IMG/VR virus record: IMGVR_UViG_2695420687_000006
DNA length: 7,582 nt
From: a virus
Taxonomy: Duplodnaviria; Heunggongvirae; Uroviricota; Caudoviricetes
Strand: one strand, 5' to 3'
Below are positions 2,072-7,582 of this stretch, one piece after another. The notes under the pieces are model-generated. The model made no database searches. It was given only the letters and a program-made list of their open reading frames with translations, and was not told the DNA's origin. The stretch's first letter is position 1, and every line of letters begins with the position of its first letter. Position numbers and translations under genes: made by a program.

Positions 2072-3433
2072 TCAGCCGCCGGACGCACTGCCGTAGTTCA
2101 CTCCTGTGATCACCGCCACCGCCGCAGTACGGCGACGACGCCAGTTGATCCAGCGCTCCGCACGGATGGCCACGCTGCCTGTCTGGAACATGGAAACCAG
2201 CTCCACCGGGGACGGCGTAGTACTGTCGCCGGTCGGTTCAGACTGCATCTCCAGTGACGCTTCACGGGACATATCCACCGCCACACCGCCGTCATCAGCC
2301 AGATAAATATCCGGCGCATTCACCAGCACCAGCTGGTCACCCACGTACTGGGAGACAATCACCGGCAGGCCCTGGAAGGTGCCGCCAAGCAGGGTCATGT
2401 CCGGGTATTCCTTCTGACCCAGCGCATTTTTACGCATGGACAGCGCCAGGGCATTCGTGCTGGACATCAGCCAGACAGCACCAGTGGGCTGCAGATTTGC
2501 CGTCACAAACTGGCCAAACGCGGCCTCGGCATCCGCATCCGGGTTACCGGTTGATGCCGTGCCCTTCACATCATGGGTGATGGACGCCGGGGAGACATCC
2601 GCCACCGCCGCTTTTTTCGGGTCCACAAAGTCTGTATCCAGACGCGCCACTACCGCTTCCGCCAGCGCATTACGGACCAGTGCATCAGCAGCCGGACTGG
2701 AAAAACGGATCAATTCTTCCGTCAGTACCGCAATGGCCGACACTTTCGCATGACTGAAGGTGATGGATTCAAAATCAAACTTCGTCAGGGGTTTTGCCTT
2801 ACCCTCACCCACCCAGCCGGCAGCACCGCCGGACACCTGGGCGTGCACACGGATATTGAACGGCACCTGACGAAGTGCAGGGATCCCGCCCTGACCAAAT
2901 CGCCCGATAATGGTCTGCGGACGCAGGTAATCAATAAAGTCCTGTGCGTATTCCTGATATTCAGACAGGCTGCCTGCCCACTGCGGATCCGTGGTGGTCC
3001 CCGCGCCCACTGCCGATTTCAGGACATGATGCAGACGACTGTCATCCGGATACTGACGACGGGCCACTTCCAGGGCTTCAGATCGGACGCCTTTAGCCGC
3101 AGCCAGCGATTTGGCAAAGCGGGCGAAGCCAATCCCCTTCTCCAGTTTCTGCTCCACACGGATCACCGGCGCTGAAGCCACCGCGGCCACATTCCCGTTA
3201 CCGGCCTGTTTCACCGGCTGCGCCGTGGCGGCCTTACCGGCTTCCAGTTCACGCAGGCGCTTCAGGTGCGCATCCACCTGACGGATTTCCGCTGCGGTGT
3301 TGTCGTAATGCTCTTCCTCCTCCACATCCAGCGTGCGCCCTTCCTCTGCGGCTTTGGTCATGACCTCCTCAAGGGAGGCTGCCAGCGCTGCACGCTTGTT
3401 TTCAAAACTTTTAATCTGTTCGCCAATATTCAT
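2072..3433 (-). CDS. candidate internally initiated major capsid protein (delta domain plus HK97-fold body, 453 aa), nested in frame in the protease-capsid ORF
   Basis: An in-frame ATG at 3433..3431 (Met193) is preceded by AAGGAA with about 9-nt spacing and lies exactly at the linker to delta-domain junction (MNIGEQIKSFENKRAAL...). Whether it is used cannot be decided from sequence. Confidence 0.35.
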   Translation of the reverse strand: MNIGEQIKSFENKRAALAASLEEVMTKAAEEGRTLDVEEEEHYDNTAAEIRQVDAHLKRLRELEAGKAATAQPVKQAGNGNVAAVASAPVIRVEQKLEKGIGFARFAKSLAAAKGVRSEALEVARRQYPDDSRLHHVLKSAVGAGTTTDPQWAGSLSEYQEYAQDFIDYLRPQTIIGRFGQGGIPALRQVPFNIRVHAQVSGGAAGWVGEGKAKPLTKFDFESITFSHAKVSAIAVLTEELIRFSSPAADALVRNALAEAVVARLDTDFVDPKKAAVADVSPASITHDVKGTASTGNPDADAEAAFGQFVTANLQPTGAVWLMSSTNALALSMRKNALGQKEYPDMTLLGGTFQGLPVIVSQYVGDQLVLVNAPDIYLADDGGVAVDMSREASLEMQSEPTGDSTTPSPVELVSMFQTGSVAIRAERWINWRRRRTAAVAVITGVNYGSASGG

Positions 3434-4009
3434 TATGGTCTTTTCCTTATGAAAAACGGTTGTTGACTGTGCCGCAGCGCCGGCAGAAGATGCGATTTTC
3501 ACCACCGGTTTCCGGTTGCCGGACGCGGCAGAAAACGGGCGGTCGAAAGATTTAATGGTCCGGATGGTGCATTCCGCATTCGCGGGCACGGTGACGGCAG
3601 ACACCTCCATCAGTTCCCAGCGCAGAAAATGCAGTCCGCCTCCGTCCAGAAAGGTGTATTCATGGGGACGGAAGCCCACGGACAGCCCCCTGACCAGCCC
3701 GGTCTTAATGGCCGCCCAGACCTCATCCAGCCGGGCTGCCATCTGGGAGGGCATCCCCGGCTCCGGCTTCACCAGCATTGCCGTGATTTCCAGCCCTTCC
3801 CTGACCCGACGCACCGTACACTGGCCTACAGGGCGGGAATGGTCATGCTGCCAGAGAAACGGGATCGTACTGCCAAACTCCGCCCCCTCCGGCTCCAGGA
3901 TGTCACCATCCCGATCCGGAGAAGGCGTTGACGCAATCCCGGTGATCACCCGTTCATCCTCACTGAAGGATTTCACCGTCAGCAGGGAACAGGCCCGTTT
4001 AAGAGTCAC
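2072..4009 (-). CDS. prohead serine protease (S78/U35-like N-terminal domain) fused in frame to an HK97-fold major capsid protein with scaffold-like delta region
   Basis: 645-aa ORF. The N-terminal 155 aa carry prohead-protease-like motifs (ITGIASTPSPDRDGDILEPEGAEF, IPFLWQHDHSRPVG, GLSVGFRP, EVSAVTVPANAECTI). An Ala/Ser-rich linker follows, then a charged helical region (EQIKSFENKRAALAASLEEV...LKRLRELEAGKA) typical of a capsid delta domain, then an HK97-type capsid body. GTG start at 4009..4007 with AGGAGG 5 nt upstream. Confidence 0.85.
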   Translation of the reverse strand: MTLKRACSLLTVKSFSEDERVITGIASTPSPDRDGDILEPEGAEFGSTIPFLWQHDHSRPVGQCTVRRVREGLEITAMLVKPEPGMPSQMAARLDEVWAAIKTGLVRGLSVGFRPHEYTFLDGGGLHFLRWELMEVSAVTVPANAECTIRTIKSFDRPFSAASGNRKPVVKIASSAGAAAQSTTVFHKEKTIMNIGEQIKSFENKRAALAASLEEVMTKAAEEGRTLDVEEEEHYDNTAAEIRQVDAHLKRLRELEAGKAATAQPVKQAGNGNVAAVASAPVIRVEQKLEKGIGFARFAKSLAAAKGVRSEALEVARRQYPDDSRLHHVLKSAVGAGTTTDPQWAGSLSEYQEYAQDFIDYLRPQTIIGRFGQGGIPALRQVPFNIRVHAQVSGGAAGWVGEGKAKPLTKFDFESITFSHAKVSAIAVLTEELIRFSSPAADALVRNALAEAVVARLDTDFVDPKKAAVADVSPASITHDVKGTASTGNPDADAEAAFGQFVTANLQPTGAVWLMSSTNALALSMRKNALGQKEYPDMTLLGGTFQGLPVIVSQYVGDQLVLVNAPDIYLADDGGVAVDMSREASLEMQSEPTGDSTTPSPVELVSMFQTGSVAIRAERWINWRRRRTAAVAVITGVNYGSASGG

Positions 4010-4072: not shown

Positions 4073-5734
4073 TTATATGAAAAAAACCTCATACGCTTTC
4101 TTTTTCGGTTCCGGATTCAGGGACATCAGGGACACCGCATTGAAGAGCGCCATCAGCGGGTCAATTTTTCCCCGTCCGCTGGCCTGTTTGGTGATAAGAA
4201 TGGCGTTACCTTTAGGCTCCACCCGGGCATTGCCAACGCACCAGGCCATCAGTGGCTGACCACCATGCACCAGCACTCCCTCAGCCAGTTTGCGCTCGGT
4301 GGTTTTGATGGCCCCGCCCAGCTTCCAGCCCTGGCTTATCCCCACCACACTCTCATCGGGGATCCCGGCTTCCGCCAGTGAATCCAGAATCTGCCCCACA
4401 CCTGACGGGTCAATACCGATATGATCCAGTAACTCAGCCTCATGAATACGACGCACATACTCCGCCACTTCCGCCGTGTCATCCCCGACCCGACGGACAA
4501 TCGTCATGTCTCCACAGGCCACAAAATCCTGAAACCGGGATGCCTCACTCTTCCGTCTGACCACCGCGGTTTCATGCACCCAGGCATGGCCCCAGCCCAG
4601 CCATTCGCGGGTTTCCCTGTCACGGCCAGTCACGTACATTCCCAGCAGATCATCCAGGCCCCCGCCGTCAATCCCCACCGTCACCACATCAGCGCGCTGC
4701 AGGATATCGTCCAGGCTGACGCGCCTGCCCTGCTGCTCCCAGAAATCCGCGCCCGCCCAGCGGTCAGAACGCAGGGCAAGACCGATTTCCACATTGGCGT
4801 GTTTTGACATGAAGCCACGAAATGCTTCCTCACCAGCCTCCCGGGCTTTACGGTACTCCCGGTACAGAAAAGCCTCATCCACCGAATAACCGAGATTCGG
4901 ATTGACCATGGCGAGGTTTTCCATCAGCAGGTGAGCCCCGCTTTCCACCATTTCAGGAGGGTGTTCAAATATCACCGGCAGAAAGTGCGGATCATGAATT
5001 TTGCCGTCGCGCACATCCCGGGCGTACTGCAGTTTCTGTCTGAACACCCCGGCGGGCGGTTCATTCGACTGGGTGGTCGTATACACCACAAACCCTTCCG
5101 GGCGGGAGGCAAGGCCGCCTATGGCTTCACGTAACATGTCCTCCGCCTTGCACTGCTTGCCAAACAGCCACAACTCATCAATCAGCGTACCCACGGACTT
5201 GATACCAGACACCGTATTCGGATCGGCTGCCACCACCTTCAGGGTGGTGTCTGTCACCCTGTGGGTGATGGTCCGGATATGGGTCTGTACCTGGCAGAGG
5301 TCATCCAGATCATCGTCACGTCGTACCATATCCCGGGCAGGGTTGAAGGCGTTGGCCGCCACCTCCACAGTCGGGGCCAGAATCGTGTAACCCGCCGCCT
5401 GCCGCCAGTTCAGTAACAGCGCCGTCATCATGATCCCCGCGGCCAGCGTGGACTTCGAGTTTTTCTTGGGGATAAGGATAAAAACTTCCTTGATATGGCG
5501 TACACCGGTCTGCGCATCGTAGGAGCCAAACAGGGCCGCCACCAGGTCAAACACCCACGGTGCACAGGACTCCCCGAACGTCGGGCTACCAGGTGCATCC
5601 ACAATCCGCAGTTGTTTAAAAATCGCCAGGGCATGTGCGGCCTCGTCCGGATAAATCGGATCCGGAATAATCGACAGCCCCTTTTTCAGGCGCTCTGCCC
5701 AGTCCGGGCAGGCTGTGCTCCATACAGGTATCAT
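4073..5734 (-). CDS. terL: terminase large subunit (Terminase_1 / HK97-like family)
   Basis: 553-aa ORF. It has a Walker-A-like segment FILIPKKNSKSTLAAG, an ATPase coupling segment GTLIDELWLFG, and a C-terminal nuclease-like region (VTVGIDGGGLDD ... GRGKIDPLMALFNAV). ATG at 5734 overlaps the terS stop (ATGA), with GAGG 8 nt upstream. Confidence 0.9.
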   Translation of the reverse strand: MIPVWSTACPDWAERLKKGLSIIPDPIYPDEAAHALAIFKQLRIVDAPGSPTFGESCAPWVFDLVAALFGSYDAQTGVRHIKEVFILIPKKNSKSTLAAGIMMTALLLNWRQAAGYTILAPTVEVAANAFNPARDMVRRDDDLDDLCQVQTHIRTITHRVTDTTLKVVAADPNTVSGIKSVGTLIDELWLFGKQCKAEDMLREAIGGLASRPEGFVVYTTTQSNEPPAGVFRQKLQYARDVRDGKIHDPHFLPVIFEHPPEMVESGAHLLMENLAMVNPNLGYSVDEAFLYREYRKAREAGEEAFRGFMSKHANVEIGLALRSDRWAGADFWEQQGRRVSLDDILQRADVVTVGIDGGGLDDLLGMYVTGRDRETREWLGWGHAWVHETAVVRRKSEASRFQDFVACGDMTIVRRVGDDTAEVAEYVRRIHEAELLDHIGIDPSGVGQILDSLAEAGIPDESVVGISQGWKLGGAIKTTERKLAEGVLVHGGQPLMAWCVGNARVEPKGNAILITKQASGRGKIDPLMALFNAVSLMSLNPEPKKKAYEVFFI

Positions 5735-6294
5735 CCGCTTTCCTCATTATCGTTATTCACCACCAGTCGGGGTGGCGGTGGCACCGCAAAACGGTTAGCC
5801 GCTTTTTTCGCGGCATCACCTTTTGCCGATTTTTTCCCGGTATCCCCTTTTTTATGGTGCGTGAACTGCGCCAGACGCCAGGCCGCATCCAGTGCCAGTT
5901 TCGGATCAATGCAGAGGTTTTCCACCAGGATCCGCCCCATGGCTTTCACCGGATCGGGAAGACCATCCTCCATATATTCAATACCAGGAGACATCACCGC
6001 GGACGGTGGCATCTCCGGATTGTTTTCGTCCGGCTGTGGTATTGCAGCCGCCTCACGGCGACGGGGTTTATCCTCCTGCTCTGATTTTTTCTGCCGGTAA
6101 ACAGGAACCTCATCCACCTCCACCGTCTCGCATTGTTTACGGGCTATAAACGCAAGCACCTCCGGATCTTTTGCCAGCTGCGAGCCTTTAACCCTGGCGG
6201 TCTTCGCCGAATAACCAGCGGCAATGGCTGACGCTGTTTTGTTTTTCCCGGACATGAGCGCCAGCGCAAATTTTCGTTTTTGCGTTGTCAGCAC
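5731..6294 (-). CDS. terS: terminase small subunit (N-terminal HTH resembling the Terminase_2 / SPP1 G1P-type motif)
   Basis: 187-aa ORF. The N-terminus LTTQKRKFALALMSGKNKTASAIAAGYSAKTARVKGSQLAKDPEV matches the LTxKQxxF...NxTxAAxxAGYSxKxAxxxGxxLxxxPxV pattern of small terminase DNA-binding domains. GTG start at 6294..6292 with GGGAGGAGG immediately upstream. It sits directly upstream of terL and overlaps it. Confidence 0.75.
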   Translation of the reverse strand: MLTTQKRKFALALMSGKNKTASAIAAGYSAKTARVKGSQLAKDPEVLAFIARKQCETVEVDEVPVYRQKKSEQEDKPRRREAAAIPQPDENNPEMPPSAVMSPGIEYMEDGLPDPVKAMGRILVENLCIDPKLALDAAWRLAQFTHHKKGDTGKKSAKGDAAKKAANRFAVPPPPRLVVNNDNEESG

Positions 6295-6366
6295 AGCCTC
6301 CTCCCGGGTCCAGAACGCACTCAGCCGGGTATGGTTCAGCCCATTTTTCCCGGCGTCTCATGCCGC

Positions 6367-6493
6367 AAATGTTAACTGCTGCCTGGTTAACATTTGCTGA
6401 AAAAGCCAGTTAACATTTTTTCCGCACAACAAACTGAATAATAAAGATAAAAACCGCAAAAATGCCCGGGCAGCCAGTTAACATGTTAACTGC
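6367..6493. repeat. cluster of GTTAAC-core inverted repeats including an 18-bp perfect palindrome; candidate cos / terminase or regulator binding region
   Basis: The half-site CAGTTAACAT (or its reverse complement ATGTTAACTG) occurs at 6369-6378, 6385-6393 (degenerate) and 6407-6416. At 6475-6492 it forms the perfect palindrome CAGTTAACATGTTAACTG. An AT-rich spacer lies at 6417-6465. The cluster sits in the non-coding region between the HNH and terS genes. Confidence 0.4.
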
Positions 6494-6582
6494 CCTGAAA
6501 CGGGAATTTTTTCTCTGCGTGAGAGGGGGCGCGGTGTCCGGAGCGATCGTTTTTTACGCCGGATGATACCCCCCCGCTCGGG

Positions 6583-6948
6583 TTACAGTCCGATGATGTC
6601 GTCCGCTCTGCCACTACCTCCGGACACCTCCGGCAGCGTCGGGTCCGGCATACCACCCGCCGCTTCACGAGCAGACTTTTGTCGATGGCATTCGGTACAG
6701 AGCGTCCAGAGATTCGTCTCCTCATTACCACCACCGAACTGAAGTGCAATGCGGTGATCGAGTTCACTGTCACAGAGGTCAACCACACGACCACAGAGAC
6801 AGCACTGCCCGGCATCCCTGAGCCAGATATGACGCTTGAGGGAAACACGTGCACTGCCACTGACACGACGCTGTTCACCCTTCAGAATATTCACCCGTCG
6901 GGTATTCAGTGTTTTGATTCTGCTCTGGAGTGTACGAAGCTCAGCCAT
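6583..6948 (-). CDS. HNH endonuclease (phage packaging-associated)
   Basis: 121-aa ORF with a canonical HNH motif: CCLCG ... LDH ... NEETNLWTLCTECH (C-x2-C, D-H, N, C-x2-C-H). It lies immediately upstream of terS and terL, as in HK97-like cos phages. Confidence 0.9.
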   Translation of the reverse strand: MAELRTLQSRIKTLNTRRVNILKGEQRRVSGSARVSLKRHIWLRDAGQCCLCGRVVDLCDSELDHRIALQFGGGNEETNLWTLCTECHRQKSAREAAGGMPDPTLPEVSGGSGRADDIIGL

Positions 6949-6989: not shown

Positions 6990-7190
6990 ATGTCATCGAA
7001 AAACCGGACCCGCAGAACCACAACCCGCAATATCCGTTTCCCCAATCACATGATTGAACAGATCAATATCGCCCTTGAACATAAAGGTTCCGGTAACTTT
7101 TCAGCGTGGGTTATTGAAGCCTGCAGGAGAAGGCTGGCAACAGATGCAACGCATCTGCGTCCGGCCAGCATGACAAATAACGAGAAATGA
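6990..7190 (+). CDS. small ribbon-helix-helix-like DNA-binding protein (66 aa), resembling YlcI/YnfO-type small prophage proteins
   Basis: ATG at 6990 with AAGGA about 8 nt upstream. The pattern RNIRFPNHMIEQINIALEHKGSGNFSAWVIEACRRRL fits a beta-strand plus two helices. The longer track ORF from 6930 would overlap the HNH start and lacks a ribosome-binding site, so the 6990 start is preferred. The family resemblance is from memory and unverified. Confidence 0.55.
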   Translation: MSSKNRTRRTTTRNIRFPNHMIEQINIALEHKGSGNFSAWVIEACRRRLATDATHLRPASMTNNEK

Positions 7191-7321: not shown

Positions 7322-7582
7322 TCAGGGTGCAGAAGGACTAAAGATAAACGTTTTCTTCACGCCTTTACGCGGCCTATCCTTCTCAAATCGCCATTTTGCC
7401 ATCGCCTTTACAACCTGCTCATCAAACAGATGGTGCGGCTCTGAACGGATAAACTCAATTCGGGTAACAGTACAAAGCCCACGTAACGGGCGCAATATAA
7501 ATACTCCTGTCGAGTGAATTATTTTTTGTTTATGATCAAGTTCACATCTTTTTTGATGCTTGCATGAACCAGAAGAAGGGGA
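7322..7582 (-). CDS. hypothetical protein, 5'-partial at window edge (or 57-aa protein from TTG at 7495)
   Basis: The minus-strand frame is open from the window edge to TGA at 7324..7322 (87 stop-free codons in an AT-rich region). An internal TTG at 7495..7493 is preceded by AGGAG with 8-nt spacing. C-terminal sequence is ...HHLFDEQVVKAMAKWRFEKDRPRKGVKKTFIFSPSAP. No family recognised. Confidence 0.3.
   Translation of the reverse strand, partial: SPSSGSCKHQKRCELDHKQKIIHSTGVFILRPLRGLCTVTRIEFIRSEPHHLFDEQVVKAMAKWRFEKDRPRKGVKKTFIFSPSAP

Follow-up and report, generated by a model that had tools for sequence, protein, structure and literature searches.

The small terminase subunit (TerS) of the phages lambda, 21 and N15 recognizes cosB, an array of TerS sites (R3-I1-R2-R1) which adjoins the nicking site cosN (PMC4669245). 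Simple and complex versions of cosB occur within this one family, with N15 being simple and lambda and Monarch complex, and the specificities of lambda and 21 differ by matched changes in the R sites and in the recognition helix of TerS (PMC4669245). HK97 is the only structurally solved phage of the cos type with an HNH partner and 3' overhangs. Here TerS recognizes just one site, an A/T tract of 15 bp (+15 to +29), the DNA being threaded through the TerS ring and gripped by an arginine clamp (PMC11331095). A further point of comparison is the G1P small terminase of SF6 and SPP1, which are headful (pac) phages; DNA binding by helix-turn-helix (HTH) domains of the SF6 type is reported to depend little on sequence, as far as the reference list of PMC11331095 indicates. 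For the Stx1 phage Lys8385Vzw, PhageTerm applied to virion reads gave 3' cohesive ends, and CGCCCCCCCT as the cos sequence with which the genome terminates (PMC7946995). The cohesive end of this close relative of our locus is thus already published, while a limited literature search identified no earlier description of the repeats reported here or of their two matched specificity types.

In this work we analyzed a stretch of 7,582 nucleotides of a virus of the class Caudoviricetes (IMG/VR record IMGVR_UViG_2695420687_000006), which is referred to as the window throughout. The packaging genes all lie on the minus strand, and the YlcI/YnfO gene is on the opposite strand. The features are, in the direction of the packaging genes:

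7322-7495: Rz-like spanin fragment
6990-7190, plus strand: DUF3950 YlcI/YnfO protein, 66 aa, ribbon-helix-helix-like
6583-6948, minus strand: HNH endonuclease, 121 aa, the last gene before cos (Pfam HNH, phrog_589)
6583 (HNH stop) to 6294 (terS GTG start): intergenic gap of 288 bp
6297-6305, minus strand: Shine-Dalgarno (SD) sequence of terS, GGGAGGAGG
5731-6294, minus strand: terS, 187 aa, GTG start (Pfam Terminase_2, phrog_641)
6172-6240, minus strand: coding DNA for HTH helices 2-3 of TerS (residues 19-41)
4073-5734, minus strand: terL, 553 aa, nuclease/ATPase (Pfam TerL_ATPase, TerL_nuclease)
2072-4009, minus strand: prohead protease-major capsid fusion
between capsid fusion and portal: ORF of 73 aa
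496-1860, minus strand: portal

The full gene set of an HNH-type cos module is present, i.e., HNH, Terminase_2, TerL, S78 protease-capsid fusion and portal. In a prophage 99.8% identical to the window, where RefSeq likewise names an HNH endonuclease, the module is preceded by stx1, Q and the lysis genes and followed by HK97-like head-tail and lambda-like tail genes. With a threshold of 80% identity, the intergenic region was found in about a quarter of the complete E. coli genomes (1282 of 5426), with up to eight copies per genome, and in 94 phage records, mostly of long-tailed phages converting for Stx1a, Stx2a or Stx2c, such as BP-4795, 2851, and 1717. The gene neighborhood and these phage records together identify the window as part of an E. 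coli prophage, long-tailed, lambdoid and of the Stx type (BP-4795/1717 group), of which it is the packaging end, and not as a satellite.

The 645-aa ORF at 2072-4009 combines a Peptidase_S78 domain (residues 48-152) and an HK97-type major capsid domain (386-635), and the capsid CDS annotated by RefSeq in a related prophage is shorter than this fusion. The portal frame is broken into two minus-strand pieces, 496-1860 (454 aa) and 53-499 (148 aa), both of which are covered by a single PHROG portal profile of 859 positions. RefSeq flags the portal of a near-identical prophage as frameshifted; the split may be a genuine defect or reflect programmed frameshifting.

The repeats under study lie in the gap between the HNH gene and terS and, in the order in which they follow the HNH gene, are as follows:

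6475-6492: proximal pair, a perfect 18-bp palindrome CAGTTAACATGTTAACTG composed of two overlapping CAGTTAACATTT units
6419-6474: T-tract-rich spacer of 56 bp between the palindrome and the three distal sites
6407-6418, minus strand: distal site 1, AAATGTTAACTG
6384-6395, minus strand: distal site 2, AAATGTTAACCA
6367-6378, plus strand: distal site 3, inverted, AAATGTTAACTG

The hexamer GTTAAC occurs five times in the 7.6 kb of the window (6371, 6386, 6409, 6477, and 6485), always within this cluster, where 1.03 copies would be expected by chance; five or more were found in none of 200 shuffled sequences. The 12-mer CAGTTAACATTT, when up to two mismatches are allowed, likewise has five copies in both orientations, 6367-6378 (minus), 6384-6395 (plus), 6407-6418 (plus), 6475-6486 (plus), and 6481-6492 (minus), as opposed to 0.38 expected and again none of 200 shuffles reaching this number. 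Distal sites 2 and 3 are part of a perfect 12-nt inverted repeat (6365-6376 and 6386-6397) with a gap of 9 nt. The original prediction had described four half-sites and one palindrome at a density far above chance, separated by an AT-rich spacer. The density, the perfect palindrome and the spacer were all borne out, but the palindrome had been placed one base too high (6476-6493), and the cluster is made up of three isolated sites plus a palindrome which itself consists of two half-sites. It was also observed that the ATG within the palindrome opens a mini-ORF of 24 codons for a hydrophobic peptide (MLTGCPGIFAVFIFIIQFVVRKKC; 6410-6484, minus strand) which ends in the next repeat, and that two other forward repeats open ORFs of 9 and 11 aa. 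The 24-aa ORF was considered as a small membrane peptide and discarded; it is truncated or absent in three related loci (L305, L307, and L205) and is probably no gene.

The position of the cut relative to the repeats can be predicted from Lys8385Vzw, which is 96-97% identical to the window and whose record MT225100 contains the same HNH, terS, terL, and capsid genes. This record begins with CTCACGCAGAGAAAAAATTCCCGTTTCAGGGCAGTTAACATGTTAACTGG and ends in ...GGACACCGCCCCCCCT. Its start, CTCACGCAGAG, corresponds to the window from 6523 downward, and the minus strand of the window runs from ...GGACACCGCGCCCCCT directly into CTCACGCAGAGAAAAAATTCCCGTTTCAGGGCAGTTAACATGTTAACTGG. Since the mapped ends of Lys8385Vzw correspond to 6523 and 6524-6533, the cut is placed by homology at 6524-6533, with the left genome end starting from 6523. 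The cos core is then composed of:

6534-6577, minus strand: upstream half, with a G7 run (6569-6575), ...CGATCGCTCCGGACAC
6524-6533, minus strand: predicted cosN, 10-nt 3' cohesive end CGCGCCCCCT, by homology to the ends of Lys8385Vzw
6501-6523, minus strand: downstream part CTCACGCAGAGAAAAAATTCCCG, with an A6 tract at +12 to +17

Counted from this predicted cut, the palindrome begins after 31 bp and occupies +32 to +49 (its hexamers +34-39 and +42-47), the distal sites lie at +105 to +157, and terS starts at +230. The end positions of MT225100 thus place the array between the cut and terS, which is where lambda has its cosB. That cos should lie between the HNH gene and terS had been anticipated by the original prediction and agrees with the homology-mapped position; the cleavage position itself would lie outside the predicted interval of 6367-6493. 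The upstream half of the core is conserved from Enterobacterales to Pseudomonas and Burkholderia relatives, while the downstream part is kept in all relatives.

Four further observations concern the surroundings of the cut. A perfect 11-nt inverted repeat (GGTGTCCGGAG at 6533-6543 and CTCCGGACACC at 6618-6628, 74 nt apart) has one arm abutting the predicted cohesive end and the other within the 3' end of the HNH gene, so that the arms bracket the G-run half of the core. In PPompW-type prophages similarity to the window ends at about 6572, between the HNH stop and the G-run, where the IS110-family element ISEc20 is annotated just upstream of the cos core; judging from this arrangement, the HNH gene of these prophages may be disabled or parted from cos. 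One IMG/VR contig (L041, IMGVR_UViG_2681813226_000009) starts a single nucleotide from the predicted cut, with its palindrome at positions 33-50, which may reflect an assembly break at free cos ends or coincidence. Burkholderia phage records starting near terS were considered as independent end maps and set aside, as their start offsets vary.

The array resembles the cosB of lambda in being a multi-copy array located between the nicking site and terS, on the end that is packaged first (PMC4669245), in having copies in both orientations, and possibly in a bendable or IHF-type segment between the proximal and distal sites. It differs from it in the compact palindrome which serves as the proximal element and in the orientation pattern of the sites, and it has no sequence homology to the cos of lambda. 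The TerS of the window has a Terminase_2 (SF6 G1P-like) HTH, as opposed to the winged HTH of lambda gpNu1, and in place of the 12-nt 5' overhangs of lambda there are 10-nt 3' overhangs, as mapped in the relative Lys8385Vzw, and an HNH partner. In function the element is, to judge by its sequence, probably a cosB; because of the TerS fold family, the 3' and not 5' overhangs, and the HNH partner, it is no member of the lambda cos family by descent. With HK97 (PMC11331095) it shares the gene order HNH, cos, terS, terL and, as predicted from Lys8385Vzw, a 10-nt 3' cohesive end, as well as an A/T tract within about 30 bp downstream of the cut and a putative TerS recognition region on the terS side; the A/T tract is seen at the left end of HK97, where terS begins at +50. 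However, HK97 TerS has no HTH domain whereas that of the window is of the HTH type with the array further out, at +32 to +157. Neither homology to HK97 gp1 (BLASTP, E = 0.82, no sequence relationship) nor a single recognition site at +15 to +29 was found.

The relationship of the protein lies instead with SF6 and SPP1 G1P. The N-terminal domain of TerS matches Pfam PF03592 (Terminase_2; 1.3e-8), and its PDB profile matches include the small terminases of SF6 and Pam5. An AlphaFold model based on an alignment of 19 sequences (pLDDT 92-96 for residues 1-50) has predicted helices at 4-14, 19-25, 30-41, and 44-56, i.e., the N-terminal four-helix HTH domain of Terminase_2/SF6 G1P-like small terminases, and Foldseek superimposes it on the DNA-binding domain of the SF6 small terminase (4zc3) with a TM score of 0.84 and an rmsd of 1.6 Å. 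By this likeness multiple contacts with repeated DNA elements are to be expected, although SF6 and SPP1, unlike the window, have neither defined cohesive ends nor an HNH partner.

The strongest link between the repeats and TerS comes from the comparison of related loci. TerS homologues of E. coli carry two alleles of the N-terminal region, type A, which is that of the window (...SGKNKTASAIAAGYSAKTARVKGSQL..., with K19/A25/T32/V35), and type B (...SGKNRTA(S/A)AIEAGYSEKSARCKGSQL..., with R19/E25/S32/C35). Outside this region TerS of the two types can be 90% identical (P0004), so that the alleles are mosaic. The 91 distinct IMG/VR sequences with the exact palindrome are about 95% identical over the intergenic region, which makes their alignment uninformative, and a scan of IMG/VR for the type-B palindrome gave 91 AT-rich chance matches, none of them beside a cos core; type-B loci came from protein look-ups and E. 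coli genomes. Upstream DNA was recovered for eleven diverse loci. Those with type-A TerS (the window, L210, L304, L305, L207, and L307) have AAATGTTAAC-type sites. In those with type-B TerS (L205/L206, L303, L309, L306, and L308) the layout of the array is the same, but all five sites are altered to TGTTTA(C/T), i.e., AAATGTTTA(C/T), and the palindrome becomes TATAAACATGTTTATA. The association of T32/V35 with GTTAAC and of S32/C35 with GTTTAY has no exception in the eleven diverse and 110 IMG/VR loci; all 110 of the latter, which have a type-A palindrome and a readable terS start, carry T32 together with V35, or with I35 in one case. Two loci have mixed combinations, since L307 has R19, T25, and E30 yet T32/V35 and retains GTTAAC, and L306 has A30 with S32/C35 and GTTTAY sites. 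These narrow the correlation to TerS residues 32 and 35, which in the model lie one turn apart in helix 3, the second helix of the HTH. The pattern is the same as that described for lambda and 21. Satellite-like loci with a T32/V35-type TerS but GTTACAC repeats indicate that this residue-to-base rule is local to the Stx-type lineage.

The sites also stand out from their surroundings by their conservation. Within each type, identity is 0.97 at the 8-bp site cores and 0.74 at the other columns of the array, and when the site mask was shifted circularly, this value was reached by none of 206 placements. The number of copies varies by whole units, L207 and L307 each having one extra. Together with the position of the predicted cut 31 bp from the palindrome, the covariation with the TerS helix is in keeping with the primary reading of the original prediction, namely TerS recognition elements, and we consider it probable that the repeats are a cosB-like array of sites for the N-terminal HTH of TerS, located just inside the left end of the genome.

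Since the array and the HTH codons are neighbors, covariation of adjacent DNA can in part be due to linkage, and the sequence data are as such compatible with sites which are bound by another factor (TerL, HNH, a host protein or another phage regulator) and covary with the 5' end of terS through adjacency alone. TerS itself could then bind, in the manner of HK97, to the conserved A-tract at +12 to +17. The boundaries of recombination speak against this reading. The type-B locus L303 is about 100% identical to the window over YlcI/YnfO, HNH, and cos core down to about 6511, whereas identity over the array and the codons of the HTH is 60-70%. L309 has the same profile, and its identity is 93-97% over the rest of terS; its first 13 terS codons are 97% identical to those of the window. 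The TerS proteins P0004 and P0021 likewise have a type-B HTH on type-A-like backbones. In these independent mosaics the exchanged segment encloses just the array and the HTH codons, and such tight cassette boundaries argue against simple linkage as the source of the covariation. As far as the aligned sequences indicate, the array and the recognition helix travel together. The HNH protein was tried as the specificity partner and rejected; that of L303 is 99.2% identical to the window HNH and no HNH residue was found to segregate with array type. For a host factor no change of the sites would be required. We regard a different factor as unlikely. Over the upstream half of the cos core, E. coli loci of types A and B share about 100% identity. 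The A6 tract likewise does not differ between the types and falls outside the segment that recombines; it may be contacted by TerS in addition to the repeats, or by TerL or HNH, and by analogy with HK97 it could also be the TerS site instead of, or besides, the repeats.

The related loci also bear on the alternative put forward in the original prediction, that the repeats are operators of the ribbon-helix-helix-like YlcI/YnfO protein. This is the nearest predicted small DNA-binding protein, and palindromes and inverted repeats are typical of operators. Its gene, however, lies about 500 bp away, past the HNH gene, and is transcribed away from the repeats, and an identical YlcI/YnfO protein (WP_000095744.1) is found beside a type-B array in L303 and a type-A array in L304, which means that the repeats change while YlcI/YnfO does not. 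As the proximal hexamer pair is moreover present in Pseudomonas and Burkholderia relatives, there is hardly any probability left for a YlcI/YnfO operator.

These relatives were identified by scanning species-representative genomes with a TerS alignment, which gave 35 full-length homologues of 33-48% identity from Enterobacterales, Pseudomonas, Burkholderia, and others; an earlier genome scan with a single TerS protein as the query had confirmed no relative. All of them retain the cos core (G-run ... GGACACCGCGCCCCCT followed by CTCACGCACAGAAAAAATTCCC), usually right after the HNH gene. As in HK97, terS starts about 40-50 bp after the cut in these relatives, typically at about 40 bp, e.g., ...GGAGGGTGTAAAC ATG TTA ACA GCG, and the hexamers GTAAAC-AT-GTTAAC at +34-39 and +42-47 straddle the terS ATG. 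Their positions match the two halves of the palindrome of the window, which makes the palindrome an ancient element straddling the start of terS in the simple arrangement. The ATG TTA AC at the start of terS encodes Met-Leu-Thr, and 30 of the 32 relatives use TTA for the first leucine, among them Pseudomonas loci with a GC content of about 60%, while TTA accounts for only 3.6% of the leucine codons in the same loci. This excess points to selection on the DNA (or RNA) sequence TTAAC and not on the protein. In both exceptions, Pantoea L140 and Morganella L146, terS starts with ATG CTG ACA, and the GTG CTG ACA start of the window lineage has the same CTG. Between the cut and terS, L140 has three or four GTTAACC-like direct repeats and L146 one GATTAAC, with further GTTAAC/GGTTAAT copies upstream of the cut in the latter. 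On these comparisons the relatives, with one hexamer pair, look like a simple version of the array and the Stx-type lineage, with five or six and a start moved 190 bp downstream, like a complex one, in the way that N15 and lambda differ within their family. Conservation in related elements, proposed originally as a check, was thus found both for the repeats as sites and for the proximal pair in distant relatives.

Could the copies be neutral relics of duplications of the terS 5' end (ATG TTA AC), with no present function? All of them contain ATGTTAAC, the proximal pair of the relatives coincides with the terS start, and one flank, CAGGCAGCAGTTAACAT, resembles CAGGGCAGTTAACAT. Because the flanks of the copies resemble each other, it is plausible that the extra ones arose when the terS start region was duplicated. 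As relics, though, the sites are far better conserved than the spacer around them, all type-B copies have changed in concert, copy number shifts by whole units, and the mini-ORFs are not conserved, so that the absence of any function is very unlikely.

The position at the ancestral terS start also raises the idea that the palindrome acts mainly as an RNA hairpin in the minus-strand late transcript, either as an intrinsic terminator behind HNH or by influencing translation where terS originally started, and that the remaining copies are by-products. Several lineages have an extended palindrome followed by a T run (e.g., GGTGGTTAACATGTTAACCACC-TTTT in L207), that of the window can be extended as GGGCAG...CTGCCC, the element overlaps the SD-ATG of terS in relatives, and the changes in both palindrome halves would be compensatory for a hairpin as well. 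But scanning the region for terminators and promoters yielded nothing convincing on the gene strand and no terminator at the palindrome, the z-score of the RNA fold is only -1.2, Rfam gave no match for the palindrome region, and the stems are A/U-rich, with the GC clamp missing in type-B arrays. A hairpin would also leave unexplained the concerted change of the three distal copies and the link to the TerS helix, and in the window lineage terS is provided with a separate start and SD at a distance of 190 bp. As the main role of the palindrome this is improbable; termination or another hairpin activity may be a secondary function.

If the repeats are sites for TerS, packaging could be initiated as follows, with binding, bending, and the order of events being what we infer from the layout. 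TerS oligomers would bind to two groups of sites, the palindrome at +32 to +49 and the three distal AAATGTTAAC copies at +105 to +157, and bending of the DNA by the T-tract-rich spacer, possibly with IHF, would bring both groups into contact with a single TerS assembly. TerL and HNH would thereby be anchored over the conserved cos core and would cleave it in a staggered manner to give 3' ends of 10 nt, and packaging would then run toward terS. The array and the TerS recognition helix would form one specificity cassette, of which there are at least two matched versions. The T5 tracts of the spacer at +62-66 and +71-75 are conserved. No match to the IHF consensus with at most one mismatch was detected in the spacer; a candidate IHF-like site, ATTCAGTTTGTTG (6427-6439; ATTCA-N4-GTTR), has two mismatches to the consensus and is a weak match, in which ATTCA and TTR are conserved across arrays while the intervening positions vary.

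Other loci in the comparison have repeats of their own. Two E. coli contigs (L208/L209, at 1370-1530) are satellite-like loci with their own conserved cos core, a primase (D5_N/DUF5906), small ORFs, a TerS of 46% identity, and a capsid-like gene; two AAAAGTTACAC repeats follow the core, and TTAAC lies within the start of terS. Their gene content suggests a satellite which has its own TerS/cosB specificity and would use the TerL and HNH of a helper. In a group of Enterobacterales relatives (L128, L132, L135, L136, L137, and L141) the stretch that separates HNH from the cos core contains, 60-180 bp before the core, AT-rich AATGATAnnnATTATCATT repeats, which are absent from the window and resemble Fur boxes (about 14 of 19 positions by eye in L135). 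In Pseudomonas sp. RP23018S (L145) a direct repeat of about 21 bp, which contains TGACGTGC(T/C)ACA, is present ten times in tandem at -310 to -100 from terS, directly upstream of the core, with two or three similar copies in L142-L144 and L150. These latter repeats may represent a different recognition array on the opposite side of the cut.

Taken jointly, these data allow a more speculative reading, which we put forward tentatively and regard as possible but less likely than not to hold in full. The array, together with roughly the first 40 codons of terS, would be a compact, exchangeable packaging-specificity cassette. At least two, possibly orthogonal, versions of it would circulate among the many Stx-type prophages that reside together in EHEC, and the version present would determine whose genome is packaged by a given terminase. 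The proximal palindrome would be the ancestral ribosome binding site and start of terS, so that in the ancestral simple cos TerS would bind across its own start codon and couple the initiation of packaging to its own synthesis, and the Stx-type lineage would have uncoupled the two by a start 190 bp downstream and by multiplication of the sites.

The interest of the locus lies in the link of the proximal site to the ancestral terS start, in the abundance of the module in EHEC genomes which carry several such prophages, and in its two alleles. The pairing of T32/V35 with GTTAAC and of S32/C35 with GTTTAY would be a natural two-allele system that could be used to study how an HTH small terminase of the SF6 type reads DNA sequence. 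The anatomy of cos and its specificity determinants bear on which prophages, defective prophages, and satellites are packaged by which terminase, and this packaging compatibility in turn bears on the mobility of Shiga toxin genes.
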